This document shows, piece by piece, positions 28,182-53,062 of a stretch of 64,000 nt of DNA. The notes under the pieces are model-generated. The model did not search any database. It had not been told where the DNA came from and saw only the letters and a list, made by a program, of their open reading frames with translations. Positions within the stretch are counted from its first letter, which is position 1. Every line of letters begins with the position of its first letter. The stretch lies in assembly GCF_058153355.1 (NCBI RefSeq), contig NZ_CM177019.1. The stretch is one strand, 5' to 3'. Made by a program: the position numbers and the translations under genes.

Positions 28182-29608
28182 TAATGCCGATCAGTTAAGG
28201 ATCAGTTGACCGATCCAGTGGCTGTGTAAGAATCCGGAAACGCTCACTTGTTTCCGGATTTTTTTATGCACATTGGACAGGCTCTTGATCTGGTATCCCG
28301 TTACGATTCTCTGCGTAACCCACTGACTTCTCTGGGGGATTACCTCGACCCCGAACTCATCTCTCGTTGCCTTGCCGAATCAGGTACTGTAACGCTACGC
28401 AAGCGCCGTCTTCCCCTCGAAATGATGGTCTGGTGTATTGTTGGCATGGCGCTTGAGCGTAAAGAACCTCTTCACCAGATTGTGAATCGCCTGGACATCA
28501 TGCTGCCGGGCAATCGCCCCTTCGTTGCCCCCAGTGCCGTTATTCAGGCCCGCCAGCGCCTGGGAAGTGAGGCTGTCCGCCGCGTGTTCACGAAAACAGC
28601 GCAGCTCTGGCATAACGCCACGCCGCATCCGCACTGGTGCGGCCTGACCCTGCTGGCCATCGATGGTGTGTTCTGGCGCACACCGGATACACCAGAGAAC
28701 GATGCAGCCTTCCCCCGCCAGACACATGCCGGGAACCCGGCGCTCTACCCGCAGGTCAAAATGGTCTGCCAGATGGAACTGACCAGCCATCTGCTGACGG
28801 CTGCAGCCTTCGGCACGATGAAGAACAGCGAAAATGAGCTTGCTGAGCAACTTATAGAACAAACCGGCGATAACACTCTGACGTTAATGGATAAAGGTTA
28901 TTACTCACTGGGACTGTTAAATGCCTGGAGCCTGGCGGGAGAACACCGCCACTGGATGATACCTCTCAGAAAGGGAGCGCAATATGAAGAGATCAGAAAA
29001 CTGGGTAAAGGCGATCATCTGGTGAAGCTGAAAACCAGCCCGCAGGCACGAAAAAAGTGGCCGGGACTGGGAAATGAAGTGACAGCCCGCCTGCTGACCG
29101 TGACGCGCAAAGGAAAAGTCTGCCATCTGCTGACGTCGATGACGGACGCCATGCGCTTCCCCGGAGGAGAAATGGCGGATCTGTACAGTCATCGCTGGGA
29201 AATCGAACTGGGATACAGGGAGATAAAACAGACGATGCAACTGAGCAGGCTGACGCTGAGAAGTAAAAAGCCGGAGCTTGTGGAGCAAGAGCTGTGGGGT
29301 GTCTTACTGGCTTATAATCTGGTGAGATATCAGATGATTAAAATGGCGGAACATCTGAAAGGTTACTGGCCGAATCAACTGAGTTTCTCAGAATCATGCG
29401 GAATGGTGATGAGAATGCTGATGACATTGCAGGGCGCTTCACCGGGACGTATACCGGAGCTGATGCGCGATCTTGCAAGTATGGGACAACTTGTGAAATT
29501 ACCGACAAGAAGGGAAAGGGCCTTCCCGAGAGTGGTAAAGGAGAGGCCCTGGAAATACCCCACAGCCCCGAAAAAGAGCCAGTCAGTTGCTTAACTGACT
29601 GGCATTAC
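28182..29608 (+). mobile_element. IS4 insertion sequence, complete
   Basis: About 1427 bp, bounded by imperfect 18-bp terminal inverted repeats (TAATGCCGATCAGTTAAG at left; reverse complement of the right end is TAATGCCAGTCAGTTAAG) and carrying a single transposase ORF. Confidence 0.9.
28266..29594 (+). CDS. insG: IS4 transposase
   Basis: ORF 28248-29594 trimmed to [16 protein letters not shown]...; 442-aa DDE transposase recognised as IS4 InsG. Confidence 0.9.
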
Positions 29609-29639: not shown

Positions 29640-30545
29640 TTACCAGCGACCGGAAGCACCGCCACCGCCAGAAGAACCGCCACCTCCGCTAAATCCGCCG
29701 CCACTTGAGCCGCCACCGGAAGAGGATGAAGAAGAACCTTTTCTTGAAGCTCTTTCTTTACCGAGCGTCTTGTATTTGGCTCGTAGCTTTTTATTAACGA
29801 TAAGCCAAAAGATAAGCAGCGCTACGATCGCAAAAGGCGTTAACATACCGCAGGCAACGATTAAATTCGTCCATGGTCCTGGCTCGGCAACATAGAGGAA
29901 TACCATCCCGTAAATTGCGGCAGTGAGAGTTATCCAGGGTAGATTCGACGGATCGGTAAAAACAACAAAATATGAAAGCACTGCCAGCAATATAAGTACA
30001 GCAAGCGAAAATGGGATAGGGGGATTGATACTGTAATAATTCCCCCTGCCTTCCGGTAATTCACCATTCATCAGAAGTGCGCCGATATTTTCGCTTGCCA
30101 GTGTTAACCCCCCCATCAGGTCATCACTTTTGAAAGCAGGGATTAATATGTCACGGATAATCTTTGCCGCTTGCAGGTCGGTAACCACCCCTTCCAGCCC
30201 ATAGCCGACTTCTATACGAACAGCATGATCTTCCCAGGCAACCAGAAGTAAAATGCCATCGTTTCGCTGCTTATCTCCCAGTTTCCAGCTATCAAAAACG
30301 CGTGTTGCATATTGTTCAATAGAATCGTCTCCGGTGGATGGCACTATTAATACGGCGACCTGTGCCCGTGTTTTTTGTGTAATATCCTGCAGCTGTTGTG
30401 TCAGTGATTGTTGTTCAGACGTGCTTAAGGTACCAGTAATATCGGTCACCTGTTGGCGCAGCTCCGGCACAGCAATTTGCTGGGCAAGCACAGGAAGGCA
30501 CCATAAAGTGAGTAGAAAAAGGATTATACGCATAACGATCACCAA
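29640..30545 (-). CDS. TPM-domain membrane protein (YgcG-like), paralogue 1
   Basis: 301-aa ORF: signal peptide (MRIILFLLTLWCLPVLAQQ), TPM-type domain (EQYATRVFDSWKLGDK...GILLLVAWEDHAVRIEVGYGLEG), C-terminal TM helices, Gly/Ser-rich tail ending GGGGASGRW. Real start probably the Met at about 30533. Confidence 0.85.
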   Translation of the reverse strand: MVIVMRIILFLLTLWCLPVLAQQIAVPELRQQVTDITGTLSTSEQQSLTQQLQDITQKTRAQVAVLIVPSTGDDSIEQYATRVFDSWKLGDKQRNDGILLLVAWEDHAVRIEVGYGLEGVVTDLQAAKIIRDILIPAFKSDDLMGGLTLASENIGALLMNGELPEGRGNYYSINPPIPFSLAVLILLAVLSYFVVFTDPSNLPWITLTAAIYGMVFLYVAEPGPWTNLIVACGMLTPFAIVALLIFWLIVNKKLRAKYKTLGKERASRKGSSSSSSGGGSSGGGFSGGGGSSGGGGASGRW

Positions 30546-31687
30546 CGGCCGGATGAACTGCCGCCTCCTGAAGAACCGCCGCCACCGCGGAAAGAATTTT
30601 TCGACGAAGAGCGAGAATGAGCATTACGATTCCCCGTTTTCCTGTTGCTTTTATGTCCTGATCCCAGTTTAAGATTGCCAGTAAATTTGGCCACAATGAT
30701 CAGCAGAACGATGCCTGCAATGGTTATTGGGCCGATAAAATGATCAATTAGCCCAATAATTGTTGAGATGAATGCTATATCTTTATTACTGGCGAACACC
30801 AGGCACCATCCCACAACAATTATCAGCAGCACGACAAACAATGAGTTTCGTTCGGATTGAGAAAACTGCTGAGTCGTCTTTTGTTTTTTCACTTTAGCGT
30901 TTTTATTTTGGGGGGCCAGCATCATAGGAAATGCGCGGCATATATTAAAAACTACCGCGAGACGCTGCCAGCAGATTGCTGCGAAAAATAAACTAAAACA
31001 AACGACCGATACCCGCCGAATGATGACATCGTCCTGAAAGGAGAAAAACCAGACCATAGGAGTAATCATCGATATCATCCATATGCCAGGCCCGGGACGG
31101 CTGGTAAATCGCCAGAGGACAACGATGGCAACGATCATCAGTAATGTCCAGGCAAGACATGGCAGCGAGCGTTGCGGATTAGCAAACAGATGATTGGCTA
31201 AAGCATCCAAAGGGCTAAGGTTCGCTTTGATATGGGTAAACTGTGCGATGCTTTCAATTCCCTGCGTTAACCCGGAGAAGAGATTATTTTTTTTGAATTC
31301 CGGTTGCATATGGTAATGAACAATTTGCGCAGCTTGTTCCGGTGGCAGCATCTCTTCCAGTCCATGCCCAATCTTCATTGACGCCAGCCCTTCCGGCCAA
31401 ACGACGAGAATTAAGATACCTTCGCCGTACCGCTTCTCTCCAACAGGTTTCCAGTGATATATCCCGTAGCTTTGCGAGGCTGCAAGTTTAATGTCTTTAC
31501 CCCCAGTGGTCGGCGTTACCAACACGGCCACCTGAAAGTGGTTTTGCTGCTCGAGAGTCTGTAATTGTTGATTTAAAGCAGTTTGTTCTTCTGTCGTTAA
31601 TGTCCCGGTTAAGTCAGTTACTGAAGGCAATTGTTCAGCGAATGCCTGGAAACCACATAGCATCAGAAGTAAGAGAAAAATACGCAT
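30539..31687 (-). CDS. TPM-domain membrane protein, paralogue 2 (extended polytopic membrane insert)
   Basis: 382-aa ORF: signal peptide, TPM-like N-domain (GILILVVWPEGLASMKIGHGLEE), about 4 hydrophobic segments, basic linker, tail GGGGSSGGGSSSGRW; overlaps paralogue 1 by 7 nt. Confidence 0.8.
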   Translation of the reverse strand: MRIFLLLLMLCGFQAFAEQLPSVTDLTGTLTTEEQTALNQQLQTLEQQNHFQVAVLVTPTTGGKDIKLAASQSYGIYHWKPVGEKRYGEGILILVVWPEGLASMKIGHGLEEMLPPEQAAQIVHYHMQPEFKKNNLFSGLTQGIESIAQFTHIKANLSPLDALANHLFANPQRSLPCLAWTLLMIVAIVVLWRFTSRPGPGIWMISMITPMVWFFSFQDDVIIRRVSVVCFSLFFAAICWQRLAVVFNICRAFPMMLAPQNKNAKVKKQKTTQQFSQSERNSLFVVLLIIVVGWCLVFASNKDIAFISTIIGLIDHFIGPITIAGIVLLIIVAKFTGNLKLGSGHKSNRKTGNRNAHSRSSSKNSFRGGGGSSGGGSSSGRW

Positions 31688-31701
31688 TTCAATTCCTTTT
31701 G

Positions 31702-32640
31702 TTACCAGCGCCCGGAGGCGCCACCGCCGCCAGATGAACCGCCGCCGCCGCTGAAATTATCATTGTCAAAAGAGGATGAAGAGGAAGATGACGACGATGA
31801 TGAAGAACGCCTGGAGGCCGAGTTACTTCTTTCGTAATGTGACGGTCGGTTGGCACTGCGCATCGAATCCCGAACCTTTTTGCCGAAGGGGGTAAAAGCG
31901 ATGGCGACAGCCAGGAACGGTGTGGCGAAGCAGAGTAATGTTGCGAGTACTCCCCAGCTTCCGCTGAAACCTGCTATAGGTAAAACAAAGGCCAGTACAA
32001 TAGCTGTGAAGCAAATTAGTCCCAGCGTTTTGACATATCCTCTGGCGGAAATAAAGGTCAGTACTATTGCCCAGACTAACAAAGCCCACCAACCGCTAAA
32101 GGGCAAAGGGTGATCGGTCGGTGTTATCGCTTCTAAATTATTCCCCGTCAGACGATTATCAATATCGCTTATTCCCTTTTGCAAGCCGCCAGCAAGGTCG
32201 CCATTTTTAAATGCCGGAATAATACTGTTGCGAATAATTTTCCCGGACTGCGCATCCGTAATAACGCCTTCCAGTCCGTAACCGATTTCAATACGCACGG
32301 TATGATCCTGCCAGGCGACTAACAGTAGAACGCCATCATCGCGGTCTTTATCACCCGGTTTCCAGCTATCGAATACCCGCGTAGCGTACTGCTCGATGGT
32401 TTCATCGCCCGTTGTTTCAACCACTAACACGACCAGTTGTGCGTGGCTTTTTTGCATCAGCTCTTTAATCTGATTGGTCAACGTATTTACTTCATCGTTC
32501 GTCAATTTGCCGGTTAAGTCATTCACATACCTGGGTGATTCAGGTACTGGAATTTGTATGGCAAACACAGATGAACAAAAGAAAGCCATAAGGAAGATAA
32601 AATTTCGCACAGGACTTCCTCGCTTAATGAGCATTAGCAT
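31702..32640 (-). CDS. TPM-domain membrane protein, paralogue 3
   Basis: 312-aa ORF: signal peptide, TPM domain (EQYATRVFDSWKPGDKDRDDGVLLLVAWQDHTVRIEIGYGLEG), TM helices, poly-Ser tract and tail GGGGSSGGGGASGRW; start overlaps the lemA stop by 17 nt. Confidence 0.85.
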   Translation of the reverse strand: MLMLIKRGSPVRNFIFLMAFFCSSVFAIQIPVPESPRYVNDLTGKLTNDEVNTLTNQIKELMQKSHAQLVVLVVETTGDETIEQYATRVFDSWKPGDKDRDDGVLLLVAWQDHTVRIEIGYGLEGVITDAQSGKIIRNSIIPAFKNGDLAGGLQKGISDIDNRLTGNNLEAITPTDHPLPFSGWWALLVWAIVLTFISARGYVKTLGLICFTAIVLAFVLPIAGFSGSWGVLATLLCFATPFLAVAIAFTPFGKKVRDSMRSANRPSHYERSNSASRRSSSSSSSSSSSSFDNDNFSGGGGSSGGGGASGRW

Positions 32641-33226
32641 TCTGGCTAAAATCTATTGTTGGGGTTTTACTCACAGCGGCGACATCATCCGGCAAATAAT
32701 TTTTCTTCGGTGTGTAATCCATGACTTTTGCGGTTAACACTGCGGGGAATTTGCGGATAGTGACATTATATTGTTCGATGGCTTTAATATATCTTCCTCG
32801 CGCAACGGCAATTCGATTTTCACTTCCTTCGAGCTGTACCATCAAATTTTGATAGAGTTCCTGGGCCTTTAGCTCAGGGTAACGTTCACTAATTATCGTT
32901 AACTGACCGAGAGTGCGAGACACCTGCGCCTGAGCTTGTTGCCAGGTTTGTAATTTTTGTTCATCTCCCGGAGTTTGCTGAAGAGCACTACTGGCGCGAT
33001 TAGCCTGACTACGTGCCAATGTTACGGCTTCCAGTACCTCTTGTTCATGGCTGGAATAACCTTTAATACTGGCGACAAGATTAGGAATAAGATCGGCGCG
33101 ACGTTGATATTGATTTAATACCTCAGACCAGGAAGCGTTAACCTGCTCATCATAGGTTTGAATATCGTTATATCCACAGCCTGATAAATTGAAAATAAAT
33201 ATAATTACGATGAATATTCTGAGCAT
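32624..33226 (-). CDS. LemA-family lipoprotein
   Basis: 200-aa ORF with lipoprotein signal (lipobox LSGC) and LemA-type sequence (RRADLIPNLVASIKGYSSHEQEVLEAVTLARS...); first gene of the four-gene minus-strand cluster. Confidence 0.85.
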   Translation of the reverse strand: MLRIFIVIIFIFNLSGCGYNDIQTYDEQVNASWSEVLNQYQRRADLIPNLVASIKGYSSHEQEVLEAVTLARSQANRASSALQQTPGDEQKLQTWQQAQAQVSRTLGQLTIISERYPELKAQELYQNLMVQLEGSENRIAVARGRYIKAIEQYNVTIRKFPAVLTAKVMDYTPKKNYLPDDVAAVSKTPTIDFSQNANAH

Positions 33227-33398: not shown

Positions 33399-34070
33399 AT
33401 GCAGTACCCGATTAACGAGATGTTCCAGACCCTGCAAGGTGAGGGTTACTTTACCGGCGTCCCCGCCATTTTTATTCGTTTACAGGGATGCCCGGTCGGC
33501 TGTGCCTGGTGCGACACCAAACACACCTGGGAAAAGCTTGAGGATCGGGAAGTCTCCCTTTTCAGCATTCTGGCGAAGACCAAAGAGAGTGATAAGTGGG
33601 GGGCGGCGAGCAGTGAAGATTTGCTGGCTGTCATTGGTCGTCAGGGATACACCGCGCGGCATGTGGTGATTACGGGTGGTGAGCCTTGCATTCATGATTT
33701 GCTGCCACTGACTGACCTGCTCGAAAAGAACGGTTTTAGCTGCCAGATCGAAACCAGCGGTACTCATGAAGTACGCTGCACGCCGAATACCTGGGTTACC
33801 GTATCGCCAAAGCTGAACATGCGCGGCGGCTATGAAGTGTTGTCACAGGCACTGGAGCGAGCCAACGAAATCAAGCATCCAGTGGGACGCGTACGTGATA
33901 TTGAAGCACTGGATGAACTATTGGCGACGCTGACCGATGATAAACCACGAGTCATTGCACTGCAGCCAATTAGCCAAAAGGATGATGCCACACGTTTGTG
34001 CATTGAAACTTGCATTGCGCGTAACTGGCGTTTGTCGATGCAAACACATAAATATTTAAATATTGCCTGA
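33399..34070 (+). CDS. queE: 7-carboxy-7-deazaguanine synthase (radical SAM)
   Basis: 223-aa ORF recognised as QueE/YgcF (CxxxCxxC-type motif GCPVGCAWCDT). Confidence 0.93.
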   Translation: MQYPINEMFQTLQGEGYFTGVPAIFIRLQGCPVGCAWCDTKHTWEKLEDREVSLFSILAKTKESDKWGAASSEDLLAVIGRQGYTARHVVITGGEPCIHDLLPLTDLLEKNGFSCQIETSGTHEVRCTPNTWVTVSPKLNMRGGYEVLSQALERANEIKHPVGRVRDIEALDELLATLTDDKPRVIALQPISQKDDATRLCIETCIARNWRLSMQTHKYLNIA

Positions 34071-34353
34071 CAGGTAATGTGAGTAGAGGTTGTGACGATT
34101 AAGCCTCTACTCTTACATCAATCTGTAAATGCCCCATTTTCTCCTCTCTTTGGTCCGACTCCGCAATTTCGTATATTTTTCAATAGTGTTAATGTTTTGT
34201 CCAAGTAAAAATTACCAGACATTCGGAGGTTTTTAACTAACATTTATAGTGGGTAAATTGGTGGGATACGCTTAACCTTAAAAAATCAATATAAACAATA
34301 GGTTATGATTGGTGTTTGTCTTATCGGATGAACTAATTTAAATGGAGTACTAA

Positions 34354-34617
34354 ATGGCTACTTTAATGGAAAAAGATTCTCTCCTGAATGGCGTAAGTCA
34401 AAATATTGCATTTTTATCAAATGTATCAGAAATGATTTACAAGTCCCAGAATGAAGAATTACAAAAGGAGATATATGAATTGGTGAGTTATAGAGACTAT
34501 TTATATTCAACAGGCCATGAACTCGTTGATTTCAAGGAAGGAGTATTGCGATTTCAGCAAGTTAGAAAAAAATACATGCAGGATCTAAAAGCGCTAGGTT
34601 ATCCCGCAACCAATTGA
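34354..34617 (+). CDS. hypothetical small protein (87 aa) in an AT-rich islet
   Basis: ORF with GGAG Shine-Dalgarno 7 nt upstream; surrounding 34071-34797 is far more AT-rich than the flanks; no family recognised. Confidence 0.45.
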   Translation: MATLMEKDSLLNGVSQNIAFLSNVSEMIYKSQNEELQKEIYELVSYRDYLYSTGHELVDFKEGVLRFQQVRKKYMQDLKALGYPATN

Positions 34618-34797
34618 TAAATATGTCTTTATATTAATTTTAGGATGTGGATAACCTGCTGAAATTTATATTAAAAATGAAATAAAAATATTAAATTCAT
34701 ATCATGCTTGCGTTTTGTTCTCGATAACGCGTAATTTTGTTGAATGCTTTCTCCTGTGAATGCAAAACCAGGCAGTTTCCCGCCCGGCCTTCCTCAC

Positions 34798-36282
34798 TTA
34801 CGCATTCGACCAGCTCTGGATCGAATCTTCATTCCCCAGCTCACCATGCATCACTTCATACGATTTTTTCAGGATCACATCAGTGTGTTTGGTTAGGTCT
34901 TTGAAAATGCCTTTATTCATCGCGTCGTAGCGTTTGGCGTTGCTCTCAACAGGCATAAAGATATCTTTCACGCGAACCATTTTGTCGACAGCCGTTGCGT
35001 AATCCGGGTATAGCCCCAGACCTACCGCCGTATTAATCGCTGCCCCCAGGCTTGCACAACCGTTAATGGCGTTACGTCGTGCCGGAAGGTTGAACACGTC
35101 GGCAAAAATTTGCATAAACAGATCGCTGTTCGAACCGCCGCCAGTAATGATCACATGTTTCGCAAAGTGATTCATTTCATGACACATATTGTCGTAATTG
35201 TTCTTCAGCGTCAGCGTCAGCGCCACGCTTTCCAGTATCGAACGATATATCCATGCGTAATCCATGCTGGAATCAAAGCCGATCATAATCCCGCGTTTGT
35301 ACGGTTCCCACGGATTGGTCAGCCAGTCCAGCACCGTCATCAGACCATTACAGCCAGGCGGCACACAACAAGCTTTTTTGTTGAGCAAATCTTCCGGTGA
35401 AAGATCCTGCGCCCTGGCATCCTGAATTAACGATTCGCCTAGCATGTCGCGCAGCCAACTCACCGTCCACATGCCTTTGCGAATACCGTAACCTTCATAC
35501 AGCAAGGTTTGCGGAATAGAAGACATAATCGGCCAGTACGCTACCGGATCTTTCGGCAGTACTTTGCCGTTCATCATCAACGCGATGTAAGTGCCAAGAG
35601 AAATTACCGCAGTTTCATCATCCAGTAACCCGGCTCCCAGTGCTTCTACCGGTTTATCACTGGTGGTACAAACAACCGGCAGCCCAGCCGGGAAATGTGT
35701 CGCCAGCGCGGCTTGTGGTGTGATATGCCCAAGAACAGTGCCCGGCATTTGCACATCAAAAAGCATCTGTTGGGGAATATTAAACTTCTCCATTACCGCG
35801 GTATCTTCGCTCCATGCCCAGGTCTTATAATCCACCGGCCACTGACCAAAATAGTTGGCGATATTGTCTTTAAACTCGCCGGTTAAACGGTGTGTCAGAT
35901 AACCTGAAAAAGAGGTGACATATGCCACATCAGGATTGGTGTGCTCGTAGGGACGTGTTACGCGTGCATCCTGCCAGCTAATCAACGGCGCAGCTGGCGT
36001 GCCATCGGCTTTCAATAACGCACGGCAGCAACGGATAGATCCCAGACCAATGCCGACAATATCTTCTTTATTCCCGGCAAACTGGCTCATCAAATCGTGA
36101 CCAGCAAAACATAATGATGCCCATAAATCATCGTCAGGATGTTCTGCGGTATCGGCATCTGGAGTGTGCATCGGTTGTAATAAGCCTTTGCCTTCGCAAA
36201 CCACGTTACCTTCCAGATCGTACATCACCACTTTTGTGCTCTGACTTCCGCCATCAATCCCTATGATGTATTTTTTCGACAT
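34798..36282 (-). CDS. ygcE: FGGY-family carbohydrate kinase
   Basis: 494-aa ORF, FGGY kinase N-terminus (IGIDGGSQSTKVVMYD). Confidence 0.88.
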   Translation of the reverse strand: MSKKYIIGIDGGSQSTKVVMYDLEGNVVCEGKGLLQPMHTPDADTAEHPDDDLWASLCFAGHDLMSQFAGNKEDIVGIGLGSIRCCRALLKADGTPAAPLISWQDARVTRPYEHTNPDVAYVTSFSGYLTHRLTGEFKDNIANYFGQWPVDYKTWAWSEDTAVMEKFNIPQQMLFDVQMPGTVLGHITPQAALATHFPAGLPVVCTTSDKPVEALGAGLLDDETAVISLGTYIALMMNGKVLPKDPVAYWPIMSSIPQTLLYEGYGIRKGMWTVSWLRDMLGESLIQDARAQDLSPEDLLNKKACCVPPGCNGLMTVLDWLTNPWEPYKRGIMIGFDSSMDYAWIYRSILESVALTLTLKNNYDNMCHEMNHFAKHVIITGGGSNSDLFMQIFADVFNLPARRNAINGCASLGAAINTAVGLGLYPDYATAVDKMVRVKDIFMPVESNAKRYDAMNKGIFKDLTKHTDVILKKSYEVMHGELGNEDSIQSWSNA

Positions 36283-52911: not shown

Positions 52912-53062
52912 GTGTTCCCCGCGCCAGCGGGGATAAACCGTCGACAATGGATAAGTTGACTTCAGGTCTGGGGAGTTCCCCGCGCTAGCGGGAATAAACC
53001 GTGCAGTACGCCTGATGACAAACCAAGCATCGGGAGTTCCCCCGCGTCAGCGGGGGAACTCC
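52912..53062 (+). CRISPR. orphan type I-E CRISPR mini-array (3 repeats, 2 spacers)
   Basis: Repeat 1 52912-52940 GTGTTCCCCGCGCCAGCGGGGATAAACCG; spacer 52941-52972; repeat 2 52973-53001 (2 mismatches); spacer 53002-53033; degenerate terminal repeat from 53034. Spacers are 32 bp; repeat matches the E. coli I-E consensus. Confidence 0.9.

Follow-up and report, generated by a model that had tools for sequence, protein, structure and literature searches.

The 87-aa open reading frame (ORF) between queE and ygcE is a real gene of the EzeT antitoxin-domain family, which has no linked toxin, is under purifying selection and lies in a rare haplotype of the CRISPR-II locus. Its locus is neither a complete toxin-antitoxin system nor a CRISPR element. 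In our assessment, the product is probably an orphan antitoxin of the EzeT N-terminal family, which derives from an antitoxin/zeta-toxin operon, has been kept by selection after the toxin was lost, and would block zeta-type kinases in trans.

The analysis covered a stretch of 64,000 nucleotides (contig NZ_CM177019.1 of assembly GCF_058153355.1), which is referred to here as the window. The gap between queE and ygcE spans positions 34071 to 34797 (727 bp). A previous sequence-only reading had described this gap as an AT-rich islet carrying an 87-aa ORF with a good Shine-Dalgarno sequence, and both descriptions were correct. The GC content was 0.340 in the gap and 0.341 in the ORF, compared with 0.515 in queE, 0.490 in ygcE, and 0.505 in the whole window (34% against approximately 50% in the flanks). 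The features of the region are as follows.

33399-34070, plus strand: queE (7-carboxy-7-deazaguanine synthase), a 223-aa ORF, from the queE annotation in matching E. coli records (identity of at most 98.6%).
34071-34125, plus strand: stable hairpin directly 3' of the queE stop codon, without a U-tract (RNA fold of -22 kcal/mol; z = -4.0 against 200 shuffles).
34277-34310, plus strand: remnant of the repeat-proximal end of an I-E CRISPR2.3 leader, with no repeat after it, which may reach back to approximately 34212 (local alignment).
34333-34793, plus strand: solo-antitoxin segment (ORF and downstream non-coding DNA), common to all Escherichia orphan alleles (single blastn alignments).
34344-34609, plus strand: DNA-level homology to the bicistronic antitoxin/zeta-toxin module L021 (75.7% identity; blastn against L021 2061-2326).
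34344-34347, plus strand: Shine-Dalgarno sequence GGAG, 6 nt 5' of the ATG (read from the sequence).
34354-34617, plus strand: 87-aa putative orphan antitoxin gene, homologous to the N-terminal antitoxin domain of EzeT (homology and dN/dS).
34618-34767, no strand assigned: non-coding AT-rich DNA at the position expected for a toxin gene, without a toxin remnant (tblastn with three zeta toxins).
34768-34797, no strand assigned: final 30 bp ahead of the ygcE stop codon, with 93% identity to the typical E. coli locus L002 (3514-3543) and present even in alleles from which ygcE has been deleted.
34798-36282, minus strand: ygcE (FGGY-family carbohydrate kinase), a 494-aa ORF, from the ygcE annotation in matching records.

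Two further peculiarities of the window were observed upstream of queE. A stretch of approximately 1.4 kb between eno and a ygcG-like TPM-domain gene (28182-29607) was missing from related loci. It contains a 448-aa ORF (28248-29594), which we take to be an IS4-type transposase, and draft contigs of the same lineage end there. The adjoining ygcG region (29640-33226) is expanded; besides a LemA gene, it holds two or more TPM-domain genes whose products have long Ser/Gly tails. It includes an internal pair (30118-30380 and 32195-32454) of approximately 69% identity, and the copy number varies among related loci.

The length of the ORF is within chance. When the gap was subjected to 3,000 dinucleotide shuffles, an ORF of at least 87 aa was obtained in 6.2% of them, which is not significant alone and would suit a chance open frame in AT-rich non-coding DNA. 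Therefore, the case for a real gene stands on homology and dN/dS. A chance frame was refuted by significant homology (with EzeT, a PHROG family, and toxin-linked antitoxins), strong purifying selection, and a conserved ribosome-binding site, so that its probability is close to nil.

The sequence-only reading had recognized no family for the 87-aa protein and had proposed a BLASTP search as a check. Contrary to that impression, the search placed the protein clearly: residues 1 to 78 shared 55% identity with the N-terminal domain of EzeT (WP_000212693.1; E = 2e-26). The same region matched positions 1 to 78 of PHROG 25145 (E = 8e-20), a family of 308 positions that represents full-length EzeT. 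In a low-stringency DNA search, the ribosome-binding site and the first 23 codons matched the start of a 308-aa "zeta toxin family protein" gene, which is located downstream of lysC in approximately 1,390 E. coli genomes. Conservation among the window ORF, ezeT, and the bicistronic modules described below also includes the bases 5' of the ATG. To our knowledge, EzeT is the sole characterized zeta-type toxin of E. coli.

WP_000212693.1, the 308-aa protein encoded downstream of lysC, is EzeT (PMC10532202), and its Zeta_toxin kinase domain was located at residues 101 to 282 of 308. As reviewed previously, EzeT(1-82) is the antitoxin domain, which silences the UNAG-kinase domain in cis (PMC4803016, PMC4826407). 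When supplied from a separate plasmid, EzeT(1-82) rescues cells from EzeT-deltaN83; that is, it works in trans (PMC4803016). EzeT probably arose via the fusion of a two-gene operon (Rocker & Meinhart 2015, as cited in PMC4826407). In the fused form, there is no independent resupply of antitoxin, and newly made antitoxin cannot rescue the system (Rocker & Meinhart, as cited in PMC4826407).

Orphan, bicistronic, and fused members (13 sequences) were aligned to define the invariant and near-invariant columns. All of these residues (M1, T3, L4, M5, and L10, plus E6, K7, L43, L50, Y51, E56, D59, F60, and Y74) are kept in the ORF, and the motifs M-x-T-L-M-E-K-D-x-L at the N terminus and L-Y-S-T..E..D-F were retained. 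The EzeT N-terminal antitoxin-domain family has no Pfam entry. For the 87-aa protein, no NCBIfam family scored above threshold, no PADLOC defense model matched at E values up to 1, and no match was obtained by tblastn in 50,697 phage genomes, with no sign of a phage-borne version. A sub-threshold hit to Pfam DUF5452 (E = 0.011; 16 bits against a cutoff of 27) was rejected as a chance match.

The family is small. A profile search of 1.84 billion representative proteins returned only 21 matches, and all sequences inspected begin with M-[A/S/C]-T-L-M. Four unfused small members (P0022, P0023, P0033, and P0037) all have a Pfam Zeta_toxin gene directly downstream, with an overlap of 4 or 11 nt or a gap of 7 nt between the two genes. 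The toxins paired with P0022 and P0023 shared 68% identity with the kinase domain of EzeT. P0022 is the closest toxin-linked relative of the 87-aa protein (66% identity; 59% for P0023), and the two have a common C-terminal LGYPA tail, which EzeT lacks. The P0022 locus (L021) adjoins a T4SS coupling-protein gene. The P0023 locus (L022), whose cluster includes the Salmonella protein WP_254909313.1, lies among ArdA, PsiA, and ParB-like genes, which we read as a plasmid leading region. The unfused operons at these loci (L021 2071-3064; L022 6001-7039) are likely the two-gene ancestors postulated for EzeT, and no description of modules of this type was found in the searched literature.

GTDB species representatives were scanned with the N-terminal motif as the seed, and three architectures were obtained. 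The fused form (n = 3) was found in an Escherichia sp., in Pseudocitrobacter, and on an EzeT-identical contig in a metagenome-assembled genome labelled Collinsella. The two-gene form (n = 6) was found in Neisseria sicca, Helicobacter saguini, a Campylobacter, and three Treponema/Spirochaetia. The toxin-less form (n = 7) was found in Escherichia sp. E1V33, on two Neisseriaceae chromosomes at unrelated loci, on three pB1000-like contigs, and as a truncated copy in Haemophilus felis.

The chromosomal toxin-less members from Neisseria sp. (L035 3001-3240) and Conchiformibius sp. (L042 3001-3246) are 79 and 81 aa long and have a common C-terminal HLP.LP..Q tail at different loci. By eye, a thiC-like gene lies downstream in L035, and a heptosyltransferase-like gene lies downstream and an ispH-like gene upstream in L042. 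On the small mobilizable Pasteurellaceae resistance plasmids pB1000 (4.6 kb) and pCCK3259, a 68-aa member (MATLMEKDSLINGISQ...) is encoded right after the relaxase/mobilization genes. It is followed by a gene annotated as "antitoxin VbhA family protein," and the plasmid has no toxin gene (1791-2194 in L025 [pB1000, NC_014813.1] and 2528-2931 in L024 [pCCK3259]). Identical copies were present on Neisseria, Gallibacterium, and Actinobacillus contigs. Independent orphan copies thus exist both on chromosomes of Neisseriaceae and on small mobilizable plasmids of Pasteurellaceae.

The homology between the window and L021 starts 10 nt upstream of the ATG and stops at the base before the ATG of the module's toxin gene. 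In the unfused two-gene loci, a 245- to 266-aa Zeta_toxin gene overlaps the antitoxin stop codon, whereas the window has AT-rich non-coding DNA there instead. No zeta toxin (PF06414) was found in a search of the whole 64-kb window, so there is no adjacent or fused toxin gene. In addition, when the DNA 3' of the ORF in four orphan alleles was searched by tblastn with three zeta toxins, nothing better than E = 0.3 was obtained. The segment from 34333 to 34793 aligned at 76 to 79% identity with L001, L004, and L012-L020 and at 90% identity with L010 and L011. Because all orphan alleles carry the same sequence from the stop codon to the ygcE-proximal 30 bp, the toxin was lost once, before the alleles diverged. 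We infer that the starting point was a two-gene antitoxin/zeta-toxin operon of the conjugative-element kind. Its toxin gene would have been removed at or just after its own start codon, and purifying selection would have maintained the remaining antitoxin gene at the trailer end of CRISPR2.3, beside queE.

It is very improbable that the gene belongs to a cryptic two-part module in which an unrecognized small gene or RNA within the gap is the toxin. Several ORFs of 31 to 50 aa do occur on both strands, and the gap is AT-rich like many type I loci. However, these small ORFs are not conserved: in L010, the 90% allele, 19 bp are deleted across the 35- to 38-aa ORFs at 34092-34236, and P0004-type alleles are entirely without the counterpart of 34071-34332. 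Moreover, an Rfam search of 33900-34900 gave no match, and the downstream non-coding DNA is only 70 to 73% conserved and contains indels.

The orphan gene is rare. At more than 80% identity, the gap DNA was found in none of the 5,426 complete RefSeq E. coli genomes; a 78 to 79% identical version of 34333-34793 was found in 8 of them. The flanking genes are up to 98.6% identical to E. coli. Among drafts, the exact protein was encoded on a few E. coli contigs (EGO8352722.1, HFG3511940.1), and for one contig, identity to the window was 99.94% across 11 kb. Another draft variant was 99% identical, and a variant of 82% identity was found on several hundred contigs. The 90% variant belongs to a divergent lineage of the Escherichia sp. 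E1V33 type, in which queE is 91.5% identical. The E. fergusonii copy is a 75-aa form with a premature stop at codon 76, and fragments of 50 to 77 aa also occur. All orphan homologs in Escherichia drafts are annotated as "hypothetical protein." The sequence-only reading had regarded loss of the ORF from nearly identical strains as evidence against it; in those strains, the ORF was intact, with protein identities of 100% and 99%.

Among the eight complete-genome carriers of the homolog, ezeT was present in four, against a background of approximately 26%, a sample too small and too non-independent for any conclusion on co-occurrence. Since half of these carriers have no ezeT, the gene does not depend on EzeT. 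This absence, the rarity of the homolog, the truncated forms, and the lack of a promoter call (see below) would also fit an evolutionary relic of a decayed toxin-antitoxin module, which is functionless and has survived by chance in a few lineages. We consider such a relic unlikely in view of the selection data and of the independent orphan copies in Neisseriaceae and on Pasteurellaceae plasmids.

In comparisons of the window allele with the 90%, 82%, and E. fergusonii alleles, dS was 0.26, 0.69, and 0.79 and dN was 0.047, 0.094, and 0.087, respectively, which corresponds to a dN/dS of 0.11 to 0.18 across the three comparisons. The excess of synonymous over non-synonymous changes between the window and L001 was significant (Fisher p = 3e-9). 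Third-position changes dominated (differences by codon position, 8/8/26). The ORF had zero indels in 261 nt, whereas the adjacent 176-nt downstream non-coding stretch was 70 to 73% identical, with gaps in approximately 22 of 181 alignment columns. The divergence postdates the toxin loss, and therefore the constraint acted on the solo gene. The orphan alleles are far more diverged than their flanks (queE is 98% identical), which points to an old polymorphism or exchange among Escherichia lineages.

The gene occupies a well-known position. The E. coli CRISPR array between queE (ygcF) and ygcE is CRISPR-II, which comprises CRISPR2.2 and CRISPR2.3 (PMC3903273). In the typical E. coli order, queE is followed by a 338-bp leader, the CRISPR2.3 array, approximately 515 bp of AT-rich DNA, one degenerate CRISPR2.2 repeat, and ygcE. 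Thus, an array at the ygcE-queE site, which the sequence-only reading had noted for K-12, was borne out for typical E. coli by the loci compared and by the literature (PMC3903273). Its observation that the gap itself contains no CRISPR repeats was also confirmed, as the 29-bp I-E repeat was not found there at up to 3 or up to 6 mismatches. The only two I-E repeats in the window are located at 52912 and 52973, beside a cas3 remnant and iap. This site (52912-53001; repeats with 1 and 2 mismatches) is the CRISPR-I locus, from which most of the cas operon has been deleted. The I-E system of the window strain is degenerate. In related loci, cysH and cas3 flank a 50-aa Hok/Gef-family gene (L012 13891-14043; L016-L020 11889-12041), which is another small gene of toxin type at the border of the I-E CRISPR-Cas region.

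A trace of the former array was detected in the gap. Positions 34277 to 34310 aligned with the last 35 nt of the L001/L002 leader with a score of 43, compared with 21 ± 3 for shuffles (maximum, 33; z of approximately 7). An extended alignment of approximately 100 nt was weaker (z of 4 to 5), and the rest of the 338-bp leader was not alignable. On the basis of this 34-bp leader remnant, we conclude that an array once stood here.

In all Escherichia loci examined, the gene is located a short way downstream of queE. The 82% and E. fergusonii types have, after queE, the leader, 3 to 10 co-oriented I-E repeats, approximately 127 bp, and the ORF. Next come the last 28 bp or so before the usual ygcE stop codon and then queD, with ygcE-ygcN deleted and cas3 further on. 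Fragments of ygcE and ygcN are kept in the 90% type. In L010 (6443-7540), this part is reduced to FGGY_C and FAD-binding pieces, which look like an intermediate stage of the deletion that joined the antitoxin gene to queD elsewhere.

The sequence-only reading had suggested that the site was remodelled when the CRISPR-Cas system was lost and that a small gene was left or gained in the process. This was supported in part: the site is CRISPR-II, the array is gone, the cas operon is degenerate, and a leader remnant persists. Retention or gain of the gene as a by-product of that loss was not supported, because the same gene lies approximately 127 bp past the last repeat of an intact CRISPR2.3 array in other lineages and was therefore not gained at CRISPR loss. 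An alignment with K-12 had also been proposed, with identity to K-12 to be counted against the idea. The interval differs from the K-12 type except for the final 30 bp, which is also all that the gap has in common with typical E. coli.

Typical CRISPR-II contains a 0.5-kb spacer region and a lone CRISPR2.2 repeat, whereas the window carries the antitoxin segment in their place. Judged by these alignments, the two segments are alternative haplotypes at one position. The 0.5-kb AT-rich region between CRISPR2.3 and CRISPR2.2 in L002 (2955-3469) showed no similarity to the antitoxin segment or to the leader. No significant variation of the CRISPR-II flanks was described by Almendros et al. (PMC3903273), and therefore the antitoxin haplotype appears to be undescribed.

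The constant position shortly after queE in all Escherichia lineages examined raises the alternative of a repurposed three-helix protein tied to CRISPR-II, which either modulates the CRISPR2.3 array or its transcript or binds a different P-loop kinase. Where an array exists, the gene is co-oriented with it at approximately 127 bp past the last repeat, so that read-through from the leader promoter is conceivable, and a linked toxin is missing. However, the gene persists unchanged in the window, which has lost the array and retains only a cas3 remnant of the cas operon, and its toxin-linked relatives occur on contigs that also carry conjugative-element genes or at other chromosomal sites. The N-terminal motif common to toxin-linked members is fully kept, and the protein matched no PADLOC model and no Pfam or NCBIfam family above threshold. 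We therefore consider repurposing quite unlikely, and an orphan antitoxin is the preferred reading.

A promoter and terminator scan upstream of the ORF revealed no sigma-70-like promoter and nothing convincing, and the terminator scan made no call on the hairpin at 34071-34125, which is present only in the window-type and 90%-type haplotypes. Given the missing sigma-70-like promoter and the strong hairpin after queE, expression of the 87-aa ORF is unproven. Transcription might begin within the leader remnant (34277-34310).

The fold of the protein was predicted using AlphaFold2 from a 6-sequence alignment without templates. The model consisted of three helices (residues 4-27, 34-52, and 60-81), with a mean pLDDT of 81.7 and a pTM of 0.71, and the protein is thus predicted to be a three-helix bundle of the PezA/epsilon type. 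A Foldseek search against the PDB gave no match with E < 1. A profile search of PDB sequences retrieved neither epsilon nor PezA up to E = 10, and no match to Pfam Epsilon_antitox was found; matches to AvrSr35 in the PDB profile search were dismissed as chance.

Epsilon and PezA obstruct the nucleotide site of their toxins. By analogy, the orphan antitoxin may bind zeta-type UDP-N-acetylglucosamine (UNAG) kinases in trans and block them, using its near-invariant N-terminal helix (MATLMEKD.L). One possible target is resident EzeT, whose fused antitoxin cannot otherwise re-neutralize it; a separately encoded antidote would lift this limitation. The other is the group of zeta toxins brought in by plasmids or integrative and conjugative elements (ICEs), against which the gene could serve anti-addiction or immunity. 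As half of the complete-genome carriers have no ezeT, incoming zeta toxins or a broader role are favored. Cross-neutralization of EzeT is not assured, since identity to its antitoxin domain is only 55%.

In a wider sense, solo antitoxins of the EzeT family could represent a recurrent, positively maintained immunity against the zeta-toxin modules of conjugative elements, a generalization that we put forward tentatively and regard as less likely than not. If it is true, the chromosomal copies (at CRISPR-II in Escherichia and at other loci in Neisseriaceae) would protect the cell from becoming addicted to, or being killed by, incoming zeta toxins, and they could also provide a separately regulated antidote pool for fused EzeT. 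Likewise, the pairing of the pB1000 member with an orphan VbhA-family antitoxin could be an anti-toxin kit against toxin-armed hosts or co-resident elements. The role of the orphan antitoxin lends itself to direct testing with the published EzeT-deltaN83 rescue assay. Here, the missing forms of the family were supplied, namely, unfused two-gene operons, whose toxins share 68% identity with the kinase domain of EzeT, and an antitoxin without a toxin that has been under purifying selection as a solo gene. In addition, a rare third haplotype of the much-studied CRISPR-II locus was documented, and a name can now be given to "hypothetical" proteins of E. coli, E. fergusonii, Salmonella, and pB1000-type resistance plasmids.

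Among known systems, EzeT is one of the closest to the 87-aa protein. Both start with MATLMEKD and contain the motif YRDYLYST..ELVDF, and their ribosome-binding regions are alike even at the DNA level, whereas the central helix region (residues 24 to 42) has diverged. EzeT is a single fused 308-aa polypeptide encoded downstream of lysC, while the 87-aa protein stands alone beside queE. PezA has a helix-turn-helix (HTH) domain and the epsilon/zeta system has an omega regulator; in contrast, the 87-aa locus has no HTH domain, omega, or toxin. The chromosomal ccd module of Erwinia chrysanthemi, which acts against the ccd module of the F plasmid, is an example of an anti-addiction antitoxin. The window gene resembles such antitoxins in being a chromosomal antitoxin homolog without a matching linked toxin that could neutralize a plasmid-borne toxin. 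However, the ccd locus of Erwinia chrysanthemi is a complete chromosomal module, whereas the window keeps the antitoxin only.
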